Part shown: one piece after another, positions 4,135-61,310 of the stretch
Numbering within the stretch: position 1 is the first letter of the stretch
Layout of the letters: every line of letters starts with the position of its first letter
Source: a phage
Length of the DNA: 64,000 bases
Sequence record: PZ445444.1
Strand: one strand, 5' to 3'
Notes under the pieces: generated by a model
Seen by the model: the letters and a program-made list of their open reading frames with translations, nothing else
Told to the model about the DNA's origin: nothing
Databases searched by the model: none
Program-made: the position numbers and the translations under genes

Positions 4135-4445
4135 TACTTGAAAATTTCTGGCATATCAAGTGTAAGGAGGATTTCTAAAATGGATTTCCTCCTTTTGATA
4201 TTTCACCGGGCTAGATATTTTAAAATTCTTAGAAAATCAGAAAATGGATCGAAAACTAAAATGGATTTTTCAGAGCAGGCACGACGAGATGAACCACTCA
4301 TCCTATCGTCTGCACCATATTCCAGACCACCATTACAGATTTCCCGCACATGCTCACATCCTTCTACTAGAACTTCCCCCACTTACCCTTGACCTTTTAT
4401 AGTAATAATCCAACCACTACCTTGAAGTTGTGGCGCAGCTTTCCA

Positions 4446-4640
4446 AGTACTCGATCTGTTTTTCGTTTCAAAGATTGAATTTTCTGAAAATTTTTCTCGA
4501 TAAATTTCTCAGTACTCGATCTGTTTTTCGTTTTCTGAATCGGATTTTCTGGAAATCGTTCCGGCTCTCGACCTGAAATTTTTGGGGACGAAATCGATTT
4601 TTCGTTTTCAGAAATGGATTTTTAAAATTTCTATATGGGA
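4446..4640. repeat. degenerate tandem direct repeats (about 65-bp unit, roughly 3 copies)
   Basis: CAGTACTCGATCTGTTTTTCGTTT occurs at 4446 and 4511; recurring TTTTCGTTTTC and GATTTTCTGGAAA-like motifs. Confidence 0.6.
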
Positions 4641-4736
4641 ATATTTTAGTGGATACTATTTTATAGGAAATTGTTACGGAGGGTAATTAGCGTGCTAATT
4701 AAATTTATTAAATGCGAGGAGTTCTCATTTAGAATT

Positions 4737-4950
4737 TTGAATGATAATCATTCTCGTTTGCAGAATAACGGGCAGGCCCGGTGATTGTCTCCCGGCCCCT
4801 ACTGCCCCGGCTTGTTATTATAGTAACACACAGGACAAAGAAAGCAAGAAGTTTTTGCATAAATTTTTAGACGATAATGATAATCGTTCTCATTTCATGC
4901 AGCGCCCATCCCCGGTGGTTGTCTCCCCCGTCACCGGTGCCTGCCGTCCT
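4737..4950. repeat. two diverged ~75-bp direct repeats, each starting with a Fur-box-like sequence and ending in a GC-rich hairpin
   Basis: aATGATAATCATTcTC near 4740 and GATAATGATAATCgTTcTC at 4873-4891 (17/19 to GATAATGATAATCATTATC), each followed by CCGGTG(A/G)TTGTCTCCC. Confidence 0.5.
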
Positions 4951-5157
4951 TTCGATAGGTATATTTTGCCACCTAGCGGGGCCGCTGTCAACACTTTTCA
5001 AAAAAAAAAAAAAATTTCTAACCTGATGCGCTGACCGCTGCAACCTGGCGGGGCCAGCCTGGCAGGGCCTAACTGACCAGGTAGGAGAGAATGAAGGCTT
5101 GCAAACCTGGTGGGCCTATGCTATAGGATAGATAACAATTGAAGAGGAGGTACAAAA

Positions 5158-13853: not shown

Positions 13854-14065
13854 TCCTTATAAACTACAAAACAGGGCTTGCAATGGTCCTGTTTTTTGTT
13901 ATACTTGTTTCACGGCAGGCACCTGGTGACGGGGGGAGACAATCACCGGGTGTGCCTGCTATATAAAAACTATAAAAACCGTTGACATCTGCCAGGTGGT
14001 GGGGTAGCATTTATCTCGAAGGGGGCAAAAGCGCCCACACAACAACCGGAAGAGAGGAAAACGCC

Positions 14066-14338
14066 ATGTTAAGCTGGATTAACCAAGAAGTTGAATCACG
14101 TTTCAATGCTATTTGGGATCTCATCGAAAAAGAGGACGGAACATCAAGCCCTTATCTCAATAATCTTGAATTCCATTTCGTGGAAGCGATGAACGCAGAA
14201 CATGATCACGAAGGTGGTGCGGATGAATTCGCTAAAGGATATGGCTTCAACAATGCCAACGAAATGATCGAGGCGGTTGTACTCCAGGCTGAGGAAGATT
14301 ATCAATTAAAAACGCTTGAATTCTGCCGCCGTAAGTAA
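14066..14338 (+). CDS. hypothetical acidic protein
   Basis: 90 aa from ATG with AGAGGAAAAC leader, preferred over track start 13982. Confidence 0.55.
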   Translation: MLSWINQEVESRFNAIWDLIEKEDGTSSPYLNNLEFHFVEAMNAEHDHEGGADEFAKGYGFNNANEMIEAVVLQAEEDYQLKTLEFCRRK

Positions 14339-14400
14339 TAAGATAATGACACAGGCCAAAAGGCCCACTAAACAAAAACCACATAAAGAGGAAAAACATC

Positions 14401-14664
14401 ATGAAACGCCTTGATCAGCTCAAATTAGTTCAATATATGGCTTATCGTGTTCTTGAAGTCCAGAAAGGTAGCAAAAAAGAGGTTTGCGAGAAAGCTTATA
14501 AGATCTTCACTCGCAAAAAAGATGATTGGATGTTACGCCAGACCAAAAAAGCCGATATCTTGGGGTACCTGGAAGAAGAGATCCGGCTTGAAGAGCAAGA
14601 AGAGATCCGCCGCAGTGAGGCAGATTATCAGGCAGCTTGGGAAAACTGGATGAATAACAAATAA
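14401..14664 (+). CDS. hypothetical protein
   Basis: 87-aa ORF, AGAGGAAAAACATC leader. Confidence 0.55.
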   Translation: MKRLDQLKLVQYMAYRVLEVQKGSKKEVCEKAYKIFTRKKDDWMLRQTKKADILGYLEEEIRLEEQEEIRRSEADYQAAWENWMNNK

Positions 14665-14730
14665 TACAACAAGTTACATGGTCAGGGGCAATAAAGCCCC
14701 TTGATCACATAAAAATTATGCCATCCTTGG

Positions 14731-14759
14731 TTGACAGGGATCGGCAGTTTTGCTATATT
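14731..14759 (+). promoter_or_regulatory. sigma70-like promoter
   Basis: TTGACA, 17 nt, TATATT upstream of ORF 14809. Confidence 0.5.
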
Positions 14760-14808
14760 CTTTTTTGAAGGGAAGTTGTAAGAAAATTAACTAAGAGGTA
14801 AAAACACC

Positions 14809-15228
14809 ATGAACATTAAATCTAATAATCCGGCATATAGCTTTGATAACGCTTTTTGTCACGGTCCGGCGGCGAAAGGATTCGAAATCGATGGTAAACT
14901 AGTTATTGTCAATGTTGACGGGGAAGAGGTTGCAGTATATCCGGTGGCAGACGTTAAAAGCCGTCTACAATGCCGCATCGATGTTACCGCCTACCAGCTT
15001 GATCCGGTCCGGGTAGTTGCCCTGGTCCTGGAAGAAGAAATTAAAGCAATGCACCACAGCAACAAGTTTATTGGTGACGCTCAAGATAATATGAAGGTGT
15101 GCCGCCATAAAGTTAATGAAGTGCTTAAAGAATATGGCTTTAAAGATCTGATGATCAAACGTGAGGAAAAATTCCGCTACCGTAACGACCTGGCAAATCG
15201 GATTTTTGAAATATACGAATCATTATAA
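14809..15228 (+). CDS. hypothetical protein
   Basis: 139-aa ORF, GAGG RBS; last gene of the rightward block. Confidence 0.6.
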   Translation: MNIKSNNPAYSFDNAFCHGPAAKGFEIDGKLVIVNVDGEEVAVYPVADVKSRLQCRIDVTAYQLDPVRVVALVLEEEIKAMHHSNKFIGDAQDNMKVCRHKVNEVLKEYGFKDLMIKREEKFRYRNDLANRIFEIYESL

Positions 15229-15246
15229 TTTCTTAACTGAATTATC

Positions 15247-15275
15247 AAGGGGCTTAAAGGCCCCTTTCTTTTTGT
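15247..15275 (+). terminator. rho-independent terminator
   Basis: AAGGGGC-ttaaa-GGCCCCTT hairpin followed by TCTTTTTG. Confidence 0.65.
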
Positions 15276-15879
15276 CTGCTCTTCTCCTACCATAAACGGC
15301 CCTACCTGGCAAGTGGAATAATTGACTAGCCATCAATCCCACATACTGTACAAATATACATTGAAAATAACTATTGCATAATTTTTCATTGTGTGGTAGC
15401 AGGGCCATTTTTACCCGTTTTCTCTCCCAAAAGTGCACGTAATGCCGCTATTGCACAAATTTTAACCTGATGCACATCTCCAATATCTTGTCAACAACTA
15501 AAAATCTTTATAAGTCATACACTTACACAGCATCGAAAGCGTGTTCTACGCGAAAAATAGAGTATAACTATAGCCGCCAGATCTCAGAATTCACGTACGC
15601 ACGCCATTCTATAGCCTGCAAAGTATTTATTCCAACCACAGAATAAAGGAATAGTCAATACCTGCATAAAATAATTATTCGTGTAAACTGCATAACATAA
15701 ATCAGCTCAGGTGTCAACATTTTTCGTAAACAGCCCGAAATTATCACGATGAGTTATCATAAACAGAGAAATCTTTAGTCGTCTAATGTTTACTGTACAT
15801 TACTATACTGACTGGAATCATTAGATGACTAAGAGAAAGATAAGAAATAATTAATAATGTAATTGTTTTACCTGTAACA

Positions 15880-16145
15880 ATAAGGCAACTATGCAAACGA
15901 ATGGCATGGCGCGACGGAGTCGCGACATAATATAAAAGCAGTAACCATCACCCCCGTGATAGTTTGTCTGCAAACTATTAATCAGATCATAGTTGCCTTG
16001 TATTTAGTTAATCATGACATAACAAGCAAGGCAACTATAGATCTTATAATAGTTGCCCTGCTTTTATATTATGTCATGCTAATTATAATCAGTGCGATTA
16101 TTGTCATGTATAATTATTGTCATGCAAACGAATGGCATGGCTGAT
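15880..16145. repeat. cluster of direct and inverted repeats
   Basis: GCAAACGAATGGCATGGC at about 15893 and 16125; CAAGGCAACTAT with inverted ATAGTTGCCTTG copies; ATTGTCATG repeated. Confidence 0.55.
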
Positions 16146-16153
16146 TATCGGTG

Positions 16154-16239
16154 TGTAAACAGTCAATCATGTAAATGGTTAGCATGTGAACAATCAGGAA
16201 TGTAAACAATCCAGTGTGTAAACTAATAGGTGTGTAAAA
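16154..16239 (+). repeat. iteron array: six TGT(A/G)AA(C/T/A) heptamers at a regular 15-16 bp spacing
   Basis: heptamers start at 16154, 16170, 16185, 16201, 16217, 16233. Confidence 0.65.
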
Positions 16240-17693
16240 GTGTCATGTTGTGTCAGTTAGGTCACATTATGTCAGACAAGTTTTTCTCCTCTTTGTCAAG
16301 TGCTGCATGAAAAATTTACAATCTTGTATGGTAGCATTTTTGCGGCCCTGTTTACATTCAGGAGTGTATGTATAATCCTTGGTGTGTGGGCGTTTAGACG
16401 TCTAGACGGTCAGAAGTCTGCAGGTCAATATCTAATCTATTGGCTGCTAACTATATCCCCCACAAATAATAAGAAATATAATTGTTATGTGCGTAAACAG
16501 TAACCCATGTTATCAATCCCTGTATGTATCGCCAGTGGTGCGCATAATGGGTATTATGTTAAATTGCCCGTAATGATAACTATTCTCACAATGATAGGTA
16601 TTCTCATTCACTCCCACAAGATAGGTTGCAAATGTTGTGCCATTGTGTGAACGGCCTCACCTATTAATTTGCCTCACTGCCTCGATATTTGAGAATTGTT
16701 ATAAGAATGAGAATGATTCCCATTTCGTCCGCCTAGCAGCACTCCTGTAGGACAAGCACAAAATCGTGGCATAGCTGGACCTGTTCAGATATTTCTGGCT
16801 GGCTCTTCAGGTCTGTGTGGGAAAAGCCAACCCCCTCCGGCGGCGGGGAGGGTGTCAATTAAAAAATTTACGGGGTATATGAAGCGCTCTTCAGGTAAGG
16901 CATGTACTATGGGATGAAACCCTCTTCGGGCAATGATATTTGTGGGTGTGATATTTGCTGGAAAGCCAGATATGACGGGACTCCCGGCGGGGCAGGGGTA
17001 GTACAGACAGGGAAAATATGGGGATGTAGTTGGGTGAATTGATCGGGCAGGTAGAGTATGGAATATGTTACAAGTATGTTAAATATGGAGGGTGAATATC
17101 TGCAGGATTTGTGTGTAAAATCAAAGACTTAAGTAGTGTTGTGGTATTTTCTATAAATAATTCAAGTTTAATAGGTAATATTTGTCTCTATCCACTTTGT
17201 GTGGTAAACAAATTCAAATGAGATTGGTTTACAAGTGTATACATAATATACAAATTAAAGATACAAGAAACCCCCCTCCCCCTTCGGCTACCATTCACCT
17301 TTTCCTCTGACTGGTACTTAAACACTTATTCAGACTCTTCAGGTTATCACCCATATACCATATGGCAGTGACTGGTGTCCTCCGGCCCCTCTTTCGTCAC
17401 CCGTCCGCTTCGCCATGCTAATGCCATAGCCAAATGTTCGGTTGTTCACCCTGTTCACTCAGGTGTATCTCCATACCCCTTCAAACCGAAGAGAACAGAA
17501 AACCCGAATTACTCGGTAAAAGAAAAGAGAAGAACTTAATTTTATCAGGATAGGCAAGAATGTCAAGGCATGACTGCTCACTAAACAAGCAAACAGTCAT
17601 GTGTGGGAGGTAAGTGATTGTGGTGGTAGGAAATTTAGTTGAAAGATGTGTTATAGGTGCTTCCAGCACTTTAGCCTGGCAGCTAATTGTGTG

Positions 17694-17909
17694 TCAGTCC
17701 AGCGGTTCATCCTCTACTTCACTGAAATCAATGTTCATGGTCTCTTCCCAACCATCGATCTCAGCACAAGAGTGGAGTTCTTTAGGGTTTACTCCCAAAG
17801 CCTCAGCAACAGAGTCTATATTTAACACCTCTGGCAGGTATGATTCATCGAATTCAAGGTAAATCAGGCCACGAGTGTTGTCAACTCCACCAAATATTTC
17901 TATCTTCAT
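17694..17909 (-). CDS. hypothetical acidic protein
   Basis: 71-aa ORF. Confidence 0.5.
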   Translation of the reverse strand: MKIEIFGGVDNTRGLIYLEFDESYLPEVLNIDSVAEALGVNPKELHSCAEIDGWEETMNIDFSEVEDEPLD

Positions 17910-18029
17910 GAAATCTCCTCTGGAAATGAGAGTGTGAACGGGTTTTATACGTCACAATGCACAGGAATTATGCACGTTTGCCTCTTCAGGCCATGCTTTA
18001 GCATGAGGAACCTGTGTGGGCTCGGTGCT

Positions 18030-18242
18030 TCATAGTCTACCACCCCTGAACTCTTCGTGCTCAGGCATAATAGAGAACCAGATATCTACGATGTCCTCCC
18101 ACGTCAGGTCATCAGCCTCAGGATCTGTCTGGGACGAAGATGAAGAGTCCTCAGAATCTAAGTTTTCCTCTTTAACTGGCTCATCCAAGGGACATATGGT
18201 CACTCCTTCGGATGTCTCTTCAGATGCATGTGTGTTGATCAT
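18030..18242 (-). CDS. hypothetical acidic protein
   Basis: 70-aa ORF; start overlaps stop of the upstream small ORF (ATGA). Confidence 0.45.
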   Translation of the reverse strand: MINTHASEETSEGVTICPLDEPVKEENLDSEDSSSSSQTDPEADDLTWEDIVDIWFSIMPEHEEFRGGRL

Positions 18243-18340
18243 GTTCCACCCGTGAGTATTCCGGCAACAGCCGCTATGGAAGTAATGATCATCAGGATCA
18301 CCACTAAAACTTCAGACAATGTTCTCATTGTGTATTCCAT
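18239..18340 (-). CDS. small membrane peptide
   Basis: 33-aa hydrophobic ORF (MEYTMRTLSEVLVVILMIITSIAAVAGILTGGT). Confidence 0.3.
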   Translation of the reverse strand: MEYTMRTLSEVLVVILMIITSIAAVAGILTGGT

Positions 18341-18545
18341 ATTCTCCAAACTGTGTGTGGATACTATCACGGGAGCGGTAATGTGTCAACAGCAACGCCG
18401 CGAGGGTTTGGTTAAAATCCGAGCGTATGGTGATTTGGGTCAAAACGGACGTGCGTTCTCGCTACGCTCGAAATATGGAGTTGTTTGTAGGGAGCTCTTA
18501 AACGCTCTGTAATGAGATTAACTACCCAAGGTATGCAATCGTGCA

Positions 18546-18579
18546 CCAGATAAAGAAAAGGACGCCACAGAGCGTCCTA
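18546..18579 (-). terminator. rho-independent terminator (leftward)
   Basis: on the minus strand AGGACGC-tctgtg-GCGTCCT hairpin followed by TTTTCTTTATCT. Confidence 0.55.
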
Positions 18580-18602
18580 GGTGTCTTAAATTTGATATTT
18601 TG

Positions 18603-18914
18603 CTATACCCACGAGGGCTTATCAAGGTTGGAGTAGCTGAAAGGTGTCAAAAGGTGACTGTCAAAATCTCTCAAACTATCCAAATCTTTTTCCTCGTCCT
18701 GACACCATCTGTGCCTACATTTGTTGTTGTAGTGCATGGAATGCATAGCGTTCTGCAACTTAACAGGCACAAGTGATTCAGGAGTAGATAGTATTGTTGG
18801 GTATGCCAGAACCACCTCAAACAGTGGAAACACATCGAAACTAAAGTCTACCTCTGCAGAGGTTGATGGCATATAGGAGTATTTAGCCGCCTTTGTAGAC
18901 ATAATCCACCTCAC
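18603..18914 (-). CDS. hypothetical protein
   Basis: 103-aa ORF. Confidence 0.55.
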   Translation of the reverse strand: MRWIMSTKAAKYSYMPSTSAEVDFSFDVFPLFEVVLAYPTILSTPESLVPVKLQNAMHSMHYNNKCRHRWCQDEEKDLDSLRDFDSHLLTPFSYSNLDKPSWV

Positions 18915-19288
18915 ACAGGTTTGATAATACCTTCACCGAATAACTCTTCATATCTAATCTTATCCGGATCCCACTCCTGGATAATTTCGAAGACAATATC
19001 CAACCCAGGAATAATCACTTCTCCAGTGTCAAGTTTGGCAAGAACAAAACCAGAAGGCTGAATGGTTTCCCAGTTGCGACGATTGGAATAGAAGACCTCG
19101 AAAATATCACCGACCTTGATCTGTTGATCAAGATGTTCAAGATTCTCTTTCATATAGACGCAGCGGATTTTTCGTGCAGGCCATAGACCACCTGCATCAC
19201 GTTCATTTAGCTCTTTCACAGTGATTGGCATTCTCATAGCTGGTTCCTTTTGCAAATAGTGAAAGAGGGGCCGTAGCCCCTCTGCCAT
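18911..19288 (-). CDS. hypothetical protein
   Basis: 125-aa ORF, overlapping stop/start. Confidence 0.6.
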   Translation of the reverse strand: MAEGLRPLFHYLQKEPAMRMPITVKELNERDAGGLWPARKIRCVYMKENLEHLDQQIKVGDIFEVFYSNRRNWETIQPSGFVLAKLDTGEVIIPGLDIVFEIIQEWDPDKIRYEELFGEGIIKPV

Positions 19289-19289
19289 A

Positions 19290-19595
19290 TTATTCTACAG
19301 AGCGTTTGAACAGAATGTCTGCCTCAGACATGTGCTCAACCTCTTCTTCAATCTTAGCGCGACGTTTTTCAGCTTCGTAGCGGATATCAAACTCTGTAGC
19401 CACCAAAGATTTGATGAATTTAGGAGAATACAGATGATCCTGCTTCTCAACAAGAATGATATCCTTGATGGCATCTTTCAAATCTTTAATCTGAAGCTGG
19501 AGTTCCACCAGTTCTTCAATTGTTTTGCGAAGGCGATCACGTTCTGCAGTGTCAGAAGGAAGAGAGGTGAACAGTTCAACTTTAGATTTAGCCAT
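19290..19595 (-). CDS. hypothetical coiled-coil protein
   Basis: 101-aa ORF. Confidence 0.6.
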   Translation of the reverse strand: MAKSKVELFTSLPSDTAERDRLRKTIEELVELQLQIKDLKDAIKDIILVEKQDHLYSPKFIKSLVATEFDIRYEAEKRRAKIEEEVEHMSEADILFKRSVE

Positions 19596-34919: not shown

Positions 34920-36164
34920 TCAGCAACTACAACTTCCATAGTGCTTAACTCGCTCGATAACTTCCGCTTGCTTACCTTTATTGTAAGGACGGGAGTTAGG
35001 ACTGGAAAGGTATCCAGACACACGTCGAATTACACTGATCGTTCCCTCTTCATGGTTTCCACACTCTGGGCATACAAAGCCTTTAGCTGTTGCACTGAAC
35101 TCACCAGAGAAACCACACTTGAGACATTTATCCACAGGTTGGTTAATACCAAAATACATAATGTGTTTATACCCGAAGTCAACAAGAGCCTCTAAAGCAT
35201 CCAGGTTGTTTTTCAGGTTGGGTGTTTCTACGTATCCGATGTTGCCACCAGAGGAGATCATAGCAAAACCTTCCTCATACTCCCACTTATCAAAAGGAGA
35301 GCTATTTATCCATACTGGCTGATGGAAACTGTTGGTGAGATATTCATGCTCGTGCTTCAACACTTCCGGATATTCACGATCCAGACAGGTTGCAGCTTTA
35401 TAGCATAGACTCTCAGAAGGAGTGCCGTACAAGCTAAATGCTAGTCTACTTTCCTTCTTGTATCGCTCACAAGCATCTCTCATGTGCTGAAGGATTCCAA
35501 GAGCTAAAGCCTTGTCACCCTCTCTGCCCAAAATCTGACAGGTTTCATACACACCGATATACCCAATACTGATGGAAGCGTACCCGTCATAGAAGAGTTT
35601 ATCAATACTCTCTTCAGGATCCAGGCGAGCAAGAGCGCCTTCACACCACATGATGGGGTTCTGCCCTGCCTTTGTTCCTTTTAGACGATTAACCCTTACA
35701 AGGTGAGCCTCGTATGCAAGATCCAAGTATTCGTCAAGAACTGCAAAGAAATCAACACCTTCAGTCTTGGCTTTTGCCGCAATCATTGGCAGGTTAAGGC
35801 TAACAACGCCTAAGTTAAATCTGCCAAGGTATTTCTCCTCGCCTGTTTCCAAGTCATTGTATTTGCTAAGAAAACTCCTGCAACCCATGCTAGTTACTTT
35901 GCCATCTGTCGAGCCTGTCACTTTTCTATTTAGTGGTACAGATACGAAGTCAGGATAGATACGTTCTGCACAGCATTCCAGAGCTAATCGTTTCAAATCA
36001 TAGTTAGGATCCCCAGGGTTCATGTTGACACCCTCTTCCAGGAAGAACAGCACTTTAGGGAACACAGGTGTGATACGTTCTTCACCAAGACCCATTTTGT
36101 GGACTTTCAGGTAGTTTTTGGTAATCATTCTACCAAAGACCGAGGTATCCAGTCCTAAACTCAA
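34920..36164 (-). CDS. nrdD: anaerobic ribonucleoside-triphosphate reductase, C-terminal part
   Basis: 414 aa; NLGVVSLNLP motif, C-terminal zinc site CLKCG...CPECG and glycyl-radical motif RRVSGYL. Confidence 0.8.
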   Translation of the reverse strand: MSLGLDTSVFGRMITKNYLKVHKMGLGEERITPVFPKVLFFLEEGVNMNPGDPNYDLKRLALECCAERIYPDFVSVPLNRKVTGSTDGKVTSMGCRSFLSKYNDLETGEEKYLGRFNLGVVSLNLPMIAAKAKTEGVDFFAVLDEYLDLAYEAHLVRVNRLKGTKAGQNPIMWCEGALARLDPEESIDKLFYDGYASISIGYIGVYETCQILGREGDKALALGILQHMRDACERYKKESRLAFSLYGTPSESLCYKAATCLDREYPEVLKHEHEYLTNSFHQPVWINSSPFDKWEYEEGFAMISSGGNIGYVETPNLKNNLDALEALVDFGYKHIMYFGINQPVDKCLKCGFSGEFSATAKGFVCPECGNHEEGTISVIRRVSGYLSSPNSRPYNKGKQAEVIERVKHYGSCSC

Positions 36165-61211: not shown

Positions 61212-61310
61212 GCTAGGTAAGCCCTTTGGCAAGGGCGAGGATTTTTAATCCTGAAAATAGACGAGGTAGTCGTTGAATACATAGGTGGTTCGATTCCATC
61301 ACCTAGCACC
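61212..61310 (+). tRNA. tRNA-like gene, atypical (99 nt; anticodon loop TTTTTAA suggests TTT/Lys; ~28-nt variable region)
   Basis: acceptor GCTAGGT/ACCTAGC, D arm GCCC-TTTGGCAA-GGGC, 4-bp anticodon stem AGGA/TCCT, T arm GGTGG-TTCGATT-CCATC; CCA not fully encoded. Confidence 0.4.

Follow-up and report, generated by a model that had tools for sequence, protein, structure and literature searches.

Probable T7-type chromosome ends in the gene-free convergence zone of a Vequintavirus genome

What is the function of 2.4 kb of DNA without genes at the place where two phage gene blocks converge? The question is raised by positions 15240–17690 (the zone) of a 64,000-nucleotide (nt) stretch of phage sequence record PZ445444.1 (the window), for which an initial annotation had listed several families of ordered repeats and proposed a replication origin, a packaging or nick site, or a cluster of small RNA genes. 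The window phage is a Vequintavirus (rV5-like coliphage), and the 121 phage records that match the zone at 87–96% identity are essentially all from this genus. The rV5 genome paper drew the same place, between ORF 163 and ORF 164 (ORF, open reading frame), as a grey 'non-coding' box and proposed no function for it; its authors expected bidirectional terminators in the box and found none. Comparison with related records placed a 459-bp direct terminal repeat in the zone, and we consider it highly probable that T7-type ends are formed here at the concatemer junction, with phased repeats as binding sites and a large palindrome as a cis element. The unexplained box on the rV5 map would then be the chromosome terminus.

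Terminal repeat and chromosome ends

The records of EdH4 and Gotham each contain two 459-bp copies, identical within the record and located one at each record end. The EdH4 record starts at window position 16733 and finishes at 16275, so that 16275–16733 is present at both of its ends, the Gotham record (MT682716) is annotated with a repeat_region at 1–459 and 136567–137025, and the Pr121LW record begins at window 16275. These three records concur on the end bases, 5'-GACAAGTTTTTCTCC... and ...CCGTCCGCC-3'. A search with the 459-bp segment alone returned record positions 1–459 and a second place in HdK5, EdH4, ECP2309, and Gotham, record positions 1–458 and a second place in YN3, and the final 459 bases of ECP2303. 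In seven records, deposited by several laboratories, the start or end falls on these same two bases, and five records bear the segment at both ends, i.e., the same sequence stands at both chromosome ends in relatives' records, as in T7-type phages. The segment is 93–98% identical to those of the relatives and occurs once in the window, as expected for a circularised assembly or for a concatemer junction. The earlier suggestion of a packaging or nick site was thus essentially right, with the ends mapping to 16275 and 16733 and the phased array abutting one of them.

The terminal repeat itself is already known from sister strains. Korf et al. (2019; PMC6563267) put the terminal redundancy of EdH4 and HdK5 at 458 bp and set record ends where most reads stop abruptly. 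EdH4, HdK5, and Gotham carry the same feature at homologous coordinates, with a repeat sequence 95–97% identical to that of the window and with the same end bases; their sources give a length or a bare annotation only. Not covered there, and apparently undescribed in the searched literature, are the link to the rV5 box, the fact that both cut sites are conserved in three genera, the variability of the arrays at the cut, and the structured palindrome.

Within-genus variability was calculated from alignment columns over 11 Vequintavirus genomes. Conservation jumps at exactly 16275: from the right copy of a 20-bp direct repeat (Table 1) to the left cut, 79% of columns vary, and near-invariant sequence follows, the terminal repeat as a whole having 15% variable columns. 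Many GenBank records begin or end within the zone. Among the matching records listed, most were opened at arbitrary points, which hides the true ends, and some assemblies are tandemly duplicated here. In Shigella phage CM1 (MK962749, 1595–2638), a 522-bp tandem duplication comprises the repeat and 63 nt upstream, and its right edge is exactly the chromosome end; phage I29 (ON286975, about 379–1852) has a duplication of ~594 bp across the right junction. These duplications are either assembly artefacts at termini or real plasticity.

Judged from sequence, the two ends of a linear chromosome meet head to tail in the zone, and both gene blocks are read toward them. Cumulative GC skew is highest in the zone and lowest at a divergent zone near 56 kb, and a maximum at this place fits replication forks and transcription running toward the chromosome ends.

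Hidden protein genes were ruled out, in agreement with the initial claim that the zone has no credible ORF. The biggest ORF within the zone has 71 amino acids (aa), none of the six largest matched a PHROG, while both flanking genes did, and the majority of the six carry frameshifts or stops across 10 relatives. The sole ORF that is intact in 11 of 11 genomes (16507–16650) has no third-position bias: its variable sites are spread 8/5/7 over the three codon positions, compared to 1/1/9 in a neighbouring real 71-aa gene. Almost none of the 121 matching records annotate a gene in the zone, nearly all of them being blank or showing only an 18-bp tandem repeat. Ordinary genes at this place in related phages were what the initial annotation had named as evidence against its reading; the gap is gene-free in all relatives, including two other genera.

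Only Vequintavirus has the flanking 71-aa protein, which was thus unusable for locating the locus in other genera; the non-coding DNA of KPP-1 served as a stepping stone instead. Klebsiella phage KPP-1 (Mydovirus) has a published 514-bp direct terminal repeat with twofold coverage and a T7-type call by PhageTerm (PMC9862379). This repeat sits in the same convergent gene-poor gap, and the KPP-1 non-coding DNA matches Mydovirus and Seunavirus relatives at 70–93% identity over >1 kb; PVP-SE1 has a gene-free gap of ~2.2 kb at the corresponding place. The yield of IMG/VR scans was limited to two further Vequintavirus loci and one new Mydovirus-like locus.

Eight genomes of Vequintavirus, Mydovirus, and Seunavirus were aligned, and four collinear conserved features emerged (a slash marks the cut): the left cut (TCA/GACAAG versus CTA/AACACA), GTGCGYATAAYGKGTWTTATGTTAAAT as an inner island, GTCCGYCTARCA at the right junction, and a G+C-rich hairpin ~100–150 nt further. 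In all three genera the left cut is followed by TGTCAAG and AAATTTACAA, both invariant in the eight genomes and separated by an 18-nt spacer that varies. The right junction sequence GTCCGYCTARCA was found in KPP-1, Mydo, PVP-SE1, GAP31, and 4MG, and the tandem duplication of CM1 terminates exactly at it. The KP12 record begins at the KPP-1 repeat boundary, and relative to the position homologous to the right junction both this record and the published KPP-1 repeat end with an offset of 3 nt. KPP-1 resembles the window in its collinear repeat, left cut, right junction (GTCCGYCTAGCA), island, G+C hairpin, and palindrome; it differs in being alignable in islands only, in lacking the heptamer array and the block 17240–17690, and in the 3-nt offset of its reported right end.

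Table 1. Coordinates of sequence features in and around the zone (window positions; a slash within a motif marks the cut)
Feature	Position	Strand	Details
Intrinsic-terminator-like hairpin closing the rightward gene block	15247..15266	+	8-bp stem, 5 GC pairs, T-run
Left spacer, A+T-rich, fairly variable	15267..15869	.	G+C 0.357 vs 0.424 for the window
20-bp direct repeat ATGCAAACGAATGGCATGGC, left copy, invariant	15891..15910	+	inverted pair CATGC...GCATG inside
Large composite palindrome	15905..16078	.	outer stem 15924-15941/16058-16075; copies of CAAGGCAACTAT and ATAGTTGCCTTG within
20-bp direct repeat ATGCAAACGAATGGCATGGC, right copy	16122..16141	+	invariant though the DNA to its right is hypervariable
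Six TGTRAAN heptamers, 15-16-bp period	16154..16239	+	starts 16154, 16170, 16185, 16201, 16217, 16233
TGTCA repeats, 9-10-bp period	16241..16274	+	last copy reaches the chromosome end (TGTCA/GACAAG)
Direct terminal repeat, 459 bp, single copy in window	16275..16733	.	ends GACAAGTTTTTCTCC (5') and CCATTTCGTCCGCC (3')
Sigma-70-like hexamer pair (TTGTCA, 18 nt, TACAAT)	16293..16322	+	10/12 matches; 18 nt inside the window-left end, inward-pointing
Inner island conserved across genera, GTGCGYATAAYGKGTWTTATGTTAAAT	16535..16569	.	86% identity to PVP-SE1, E = 1.8e-5
AATGATAAC and TATTCTCA motifs	16572..16720	.	direct copies 16572, 16590; inverted TGAGAAT 16690, 16708
Right junction motif GTCCGCC/TAGCA across the other chromosome end	16727..16738	.	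conserved across genera
CTCTTCRGG motifs, four	16803..17343	+	16803, 16887, 16922, 17335; a fifth at 17982 beyond the zone
G+C-rich hairpin, terminator-like	16833..16852	-	~100 nt inside the end; arms CCCTCCGG..GGGGAGGG
Block almost invariant in the genus	17240..17690	.	6% of columns variable

Phased repeats at the left cut

The heptamers left of the cut, described initially as six regularly spaced copies of TGT(A/G)AA(C), were recovered with spacings of 16, 15, 16, 16, and 16 bp, and a phased triple-heptamer pattern gave two matches, both within the array, compared to 0.00 expected from shuffles. Tandem Repeats Finder did not detect this array, as its units are too diverged beyond the core. 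The 11 Vequintavirus genomes contain 1–8 GTRAAH units, one per 15–16 bp, followed by 2–5 TGTCA units, one per 9–10 bp, and in relatives the last TGTCA unit always lies 5 nt before the repeat start, i.e., it ends at the cut. Motif and period thus persist in the hypervariable stretch, which, as far as sequence can tell, is how protein-binding repeats typically behave. The packaging enzyme may use the fast-evolving heptamer array as a landing pad that is specific to the strain.

Regularly phased motifs that are found only in the zone would also be expected if the heptamers were iterons for a phage initiator and the A+T-rich DNA and the palindrome an unwinding or loading site. Like iteron origins, the array consists of short direct repeats at regular spacing beside A+T-rich DNA (G+C 0.36 in the flanks), and a strongly folding palindrome adjoins it. 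The T7 promoters phiOL and phiOR, which lie near the ends, act as secondary origins, and terminus and origin functions may coexist. Classical iterons are phased at 11 or 22 bp, whereas the period of 15–16 bp amounts to 1.5 helical turns and is not helical. The number of heptamers varies from 1 to 8 among genomes of ~95% identity, and the array is missing in Mydovirus and Seunavirus, which retain the rest of the zone. Further differences from iteron origins are that no DnaA-box-like 9-mer (<=1 mismatch) occurs in 15240–17690, that no initiator gene is adjacent, and that the array abuts a DNA end. The cumulative GC skew shows a maximum here and not a minimum, and the rV5 authors observed that the skew changes only as the direction of transcription changes, which also counts against an origin. 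We consequently regard an iteron origin, one of the functions first proposed for the zone, as distinctly unlikely.

Among the closest known parallels to the zone is T7. Its record (NC_001604) has a 160-bp repeat, CCTAAAG heptamers at ~13-bp spacing just inside the left repeat and a looser set before the right repeat, and the promoters A0, phiOL, and phiOR near the ends. Shared with the zone are a short exact direct repeat, adjoining heptamer arrays of non-helical period (~13 bp in T7, 15–16 bp here), promoter-like sites near the ends, and an inverted repeat inside one end; T7 hairpin end formation was reportedly described by Chung, Nardone and Hinkle in 1990. There is no sequence similarity between the two, and the window belongs to a 137-kb myovirus, while T7 is a podovirus; the repeat is three times longer and the palindrome much larger than in T7. 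All T7 genes point away from the left end, whereas here the genes on both arms point toward the ends. For T7 packaging, a published summary (PMC9860248) assigns recognition of PacB to the small terminase subunit and cleavage of PacC to the large subunit.

Under the T7 model, the virion chromosome would start at window 16275 and run through the whole genome to another copy of 16275–16733 at its far end, and concatemers as well as circularised assemblies would have one repeat copy between the two converging gene blocks. Terminase would recognise the junction sequences and cut at TGTCA/GACAAG on one side and at GTCCGCC/TAGCA on the other, with the 459 bp between the cuts being copied to give a repeat at both ends of each packaged chromosome. 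In the next infection, the terminal repeats would allow recombination into concatemers. Terminase or an accessory protein would most likely land on the TGTCA repeats and the heptamer array, and the G+C hairpins would halt transcription short of the chromosome ends.

Palindrome and evidence against T7-type ends

The palindrome is a multi-stem structure of about 170–260 nt. It includes repeats that had been noted initially: direct and inverted copies of (C)AAGGCAACTAT are indeed present (direct at 15881 and 16027, inverted at 15989 and 16049), while the accompanying direct repeat is 20 and not 18 bp long. Its perfect 18-nt inverted repeat (15924–15941 with 16058–16075) was absent from that description. 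Folded as single-stranded DNA, 15870–16145 had z = -8.0, and its KPP-1 counterpart z = -9.25. Few parts of the zone vary less within the genus than the palindrome core, in which 7% of columns are variable. A literature search for earlier descriptions of the palindrome was without relevant result.

Homologous palindromes occur in Mydovirus and Seunavirus, where those of PVP-SE1, GAP31, and Mydo have perfect outer arms of 18–21 nt around 173–217 nt. A consensus from eight Mydovirus and Seunavirus elements has 55 pairs, nine of them with compensatory double changes, and entire hairpins are swapped among these elements for other sequences that still pair. The outer stem of the window is in register with the Mydovirus and Seunavirus stems, being preceded by GCGAC and followed by AGTAAC, with 12 of 18 positions identical. 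All 18 pairs of the outer stem are preserved in six distinct sequences, and nine of these pairs are changed on both sides. This pairing was reached by 0 of 500 shuffles and collapses in slid controls.

In the proposed mechanism the palindrome, 200–400 bp inside the left-cut end, would most likely be a cis-acting hairpin or cruciform for end processing or terminus replication. The more specific proposal that it serves, as hairpin, cruciform, or small RNA, in duplicating or replicating the terminal repeat, with the heptamers as the landing pad of the packaging enzyme, is tentative. The minus strand of 15905–16090, taken as RNA, is 4–14 kcal/mol more stable than the plus strand in nine of nine genomes; as evidence for an RNA, this predicted bias is suggestive only. 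A conserved promoter for the palindrome was considered and rejected: a perfect TATAAT is located 6 nt upstream on the minus strand, but its spacing to the -35 hexamer is 14 nt and it is replaced in rV5, Murica, and CM1.

Several observations weigh against T7-type ends as outlined here. The ends of the window phage are placed by homology to relatives (93–98% identity over the repeat). Short-motif arrays directly flank the repeat on one side only, whereas T7 has arrays on both sides. CM1 and EmilHeitz have only a degenerate heptamer array with one canonical copy, and Mydovirus and Seunavirus have none; the array in that form can therefore not be essential. Changes in the outer stem of the palindrome are all from Watson-Crick to Watson-Crick pairs, with no G-U intermediates, so that homogenisation of a DNA inverted repeat by recombination is as good an explanation as selection on a folded strand or an RNA. 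Finally, PhageTerm-based reports describe the Vequintavirus phages bov10K2 and BpE1AUH as circularly permuted and 'headful (PAC)', respectively, and the related genus Certrevirus has been described as circularly permuted. These last reports would fit headful packaging from a pac site, in which the zone would hold the site of the first cut and chromosomes would be partly permuted with variable ends. The two end bases shared by seven records 459 bp apart, with the segment at both ends of five, the abrupt read stops at which Korf et al. set record ends, and the restriction of twofold coverage in KPP-1 to 514 bp all argue against this alternative, and a short exact repeat is not expected from a pac phage. 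We consider headful packaging very improbable; the PhageTerm calls in the literature conflict with one another.

If the zone is a T7-type terminus, exact ends and conserved signals will aid annotation, the engineering and rebooting of therapeutic or biocontrol coliphages, and the design of packaging or transduction assays. Beyond the ends, the gain for biology is incremental, with the palindrome, the arrays, and the block 17240–17690 as concrete targets for packaging studies.

Signals inside the repeat, candidate RNAs, and neighbouring loci

The hexamer pair just inside the left end, which frames the variable 18-nt spacer, may be a promoter. The final T of its second hexamer is missing in some genomes, and for this reason the pair may instead be a protein-binding site. 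Further inside, the AATGATA...TTCTCA motifs that had been noted near 16570–16607 were found again, together with inverted TGAGAAT copies. Their tandem pair, which carries a repeat_region annotation in relatives, corresponds to the only array reported by Tandem Repeats Finder, an 18-bp repeat with 1.9 copies of AATGATAACTATTCTCAC at 16572–16606. With 5–6 mismatches of 19 in the repeat, the AATGATAAC motifs resemble a Fur box; further copies are present elsewhere in the genome. A second ORF-poor stretch (window 4400–5100) contains two similar elements, each opening with a near-consensus Fur-box-like palindrome, namely GATAATGATAATCGTTCTC at 4873 (2 mismatches of 19) and TTGAATGATAATCATTCTC at 4737 (4 mismatches). 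In both elements the palindrome is followed by ...CCCGGTGRTTGTCTCCC..., and their AATGATAAYNATTCTC motif is also found in the terminal repeat and in KPP-1 hairpins.

To the right of the repeat, the hairpin with arms CCCTCCGG..GGGGAGGG maintains its position in PVP-SE1, GAP31, 4MG, KPP-1, and Mydo, and a weaker second G+C hairpin copy lies near 16981–16999. CTCTTCRGG has eight matches in the window, all on the plus strand, compared to 0.74 expected. Copies of CTCTTCAGG occur at 16803, 16887, 17335, and 17982, and the variant CTCTTCGGG at 16922; this confirms the same-strand copies of the initial annotation, in which the last was placed at 17981 and two were said to be embedded in longer similar elements, which align in patches only. 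Beyond the terminal zone, CTCTTCAGG is likewise found on the plus strand at 35610, 43041, and 43908. A hammerhead-like reading of CCUGAAGAG on the minus strand was rejected: the core fits CUGANGA, but the closing pair of stem II and the other copies do not fit, and no Rfam ribozyme was matched.

The block 17240–17690 varies less (6% of columns) than the third codon positions of the adjacent gene (12.5%). Neither in KPP-1 nor in PVP-SE1 was a counterpart found, and comparison with Rfam and with E. coli gave no match. The zone's best sigma-70 match lies within the block on the minus strand (17566..17539; TTGACA, 16 nt, TAAAAT, with TG; 11/12), and a transcript from this site would head toward the chromosome end. 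Such a transcript, reaching the hairpin 16852..16833 and carrying CCYGAAGAG four times, would be one form of a stable non-coding RNA, and RNA from the palindrome another. Consistent with this possibility are the 11/12 match with its extended -10 in a block that is 94% invariant and exceeds the conservation of neighbouring synonymous sites, the terminator-like hairpin downstream on the same strand, the restriction of all CTCTTCRGG copies to one strand, and, for the palindrome, the compensatory changes and the better folding of the minus strand as RNA in nine genomes. On the other hand, neither strand of 14000–19500 matched an Rfam 15 covariance model, even with E values up to 1 allowed, and the candidate 5' region (17255–17535) folded no better than shuffles (z = -1.1 and -0.3). 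No convincing conserved promoter was found upstream of the palindrome on either strand, its outer stem is without G-U intermediates, and a literature search turned up no Vequintavirus transcriptome. Stable RNAs as the function of the zone are thus rather doubtful. Host mimicry was rejected as well, as none of 5,426 complete E. coli genomes had similarity to the zone DNA.

At the left margin, a terminator is annotated at the homologous place of the hairpin 15247..15266 in Alma, Murica, and EdH4. The adjoining spacer has 27% variable columns, and relatives have broken versions of its ORFs. The last rightward gene (14809–15228, 139 aa, phrog_12277) seems to be missing or replaced in Alma, EdH4, WM, and Gotham, where the alignment breaks at the homologous place and no such coding sequence is annotated; gene content beside the terminus therefore varies. 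At 61212–61310 of the window, within a cluster of seven transfer RNA (tRNA) calls, ARAGORN predicted a 99-nt tRNA-like gene with a four-base anticodon (atcc), leaving its identity undetermined. Nineteen of the records matching the zone are named 'Campylobacter phage' (GenBank MG0656xx). They are 88–95% identical to the coliphage region and also encode the genus-specific 71-aa gene, and by their sequences look like mislabelled or contaminating Vequintavirus genomes.

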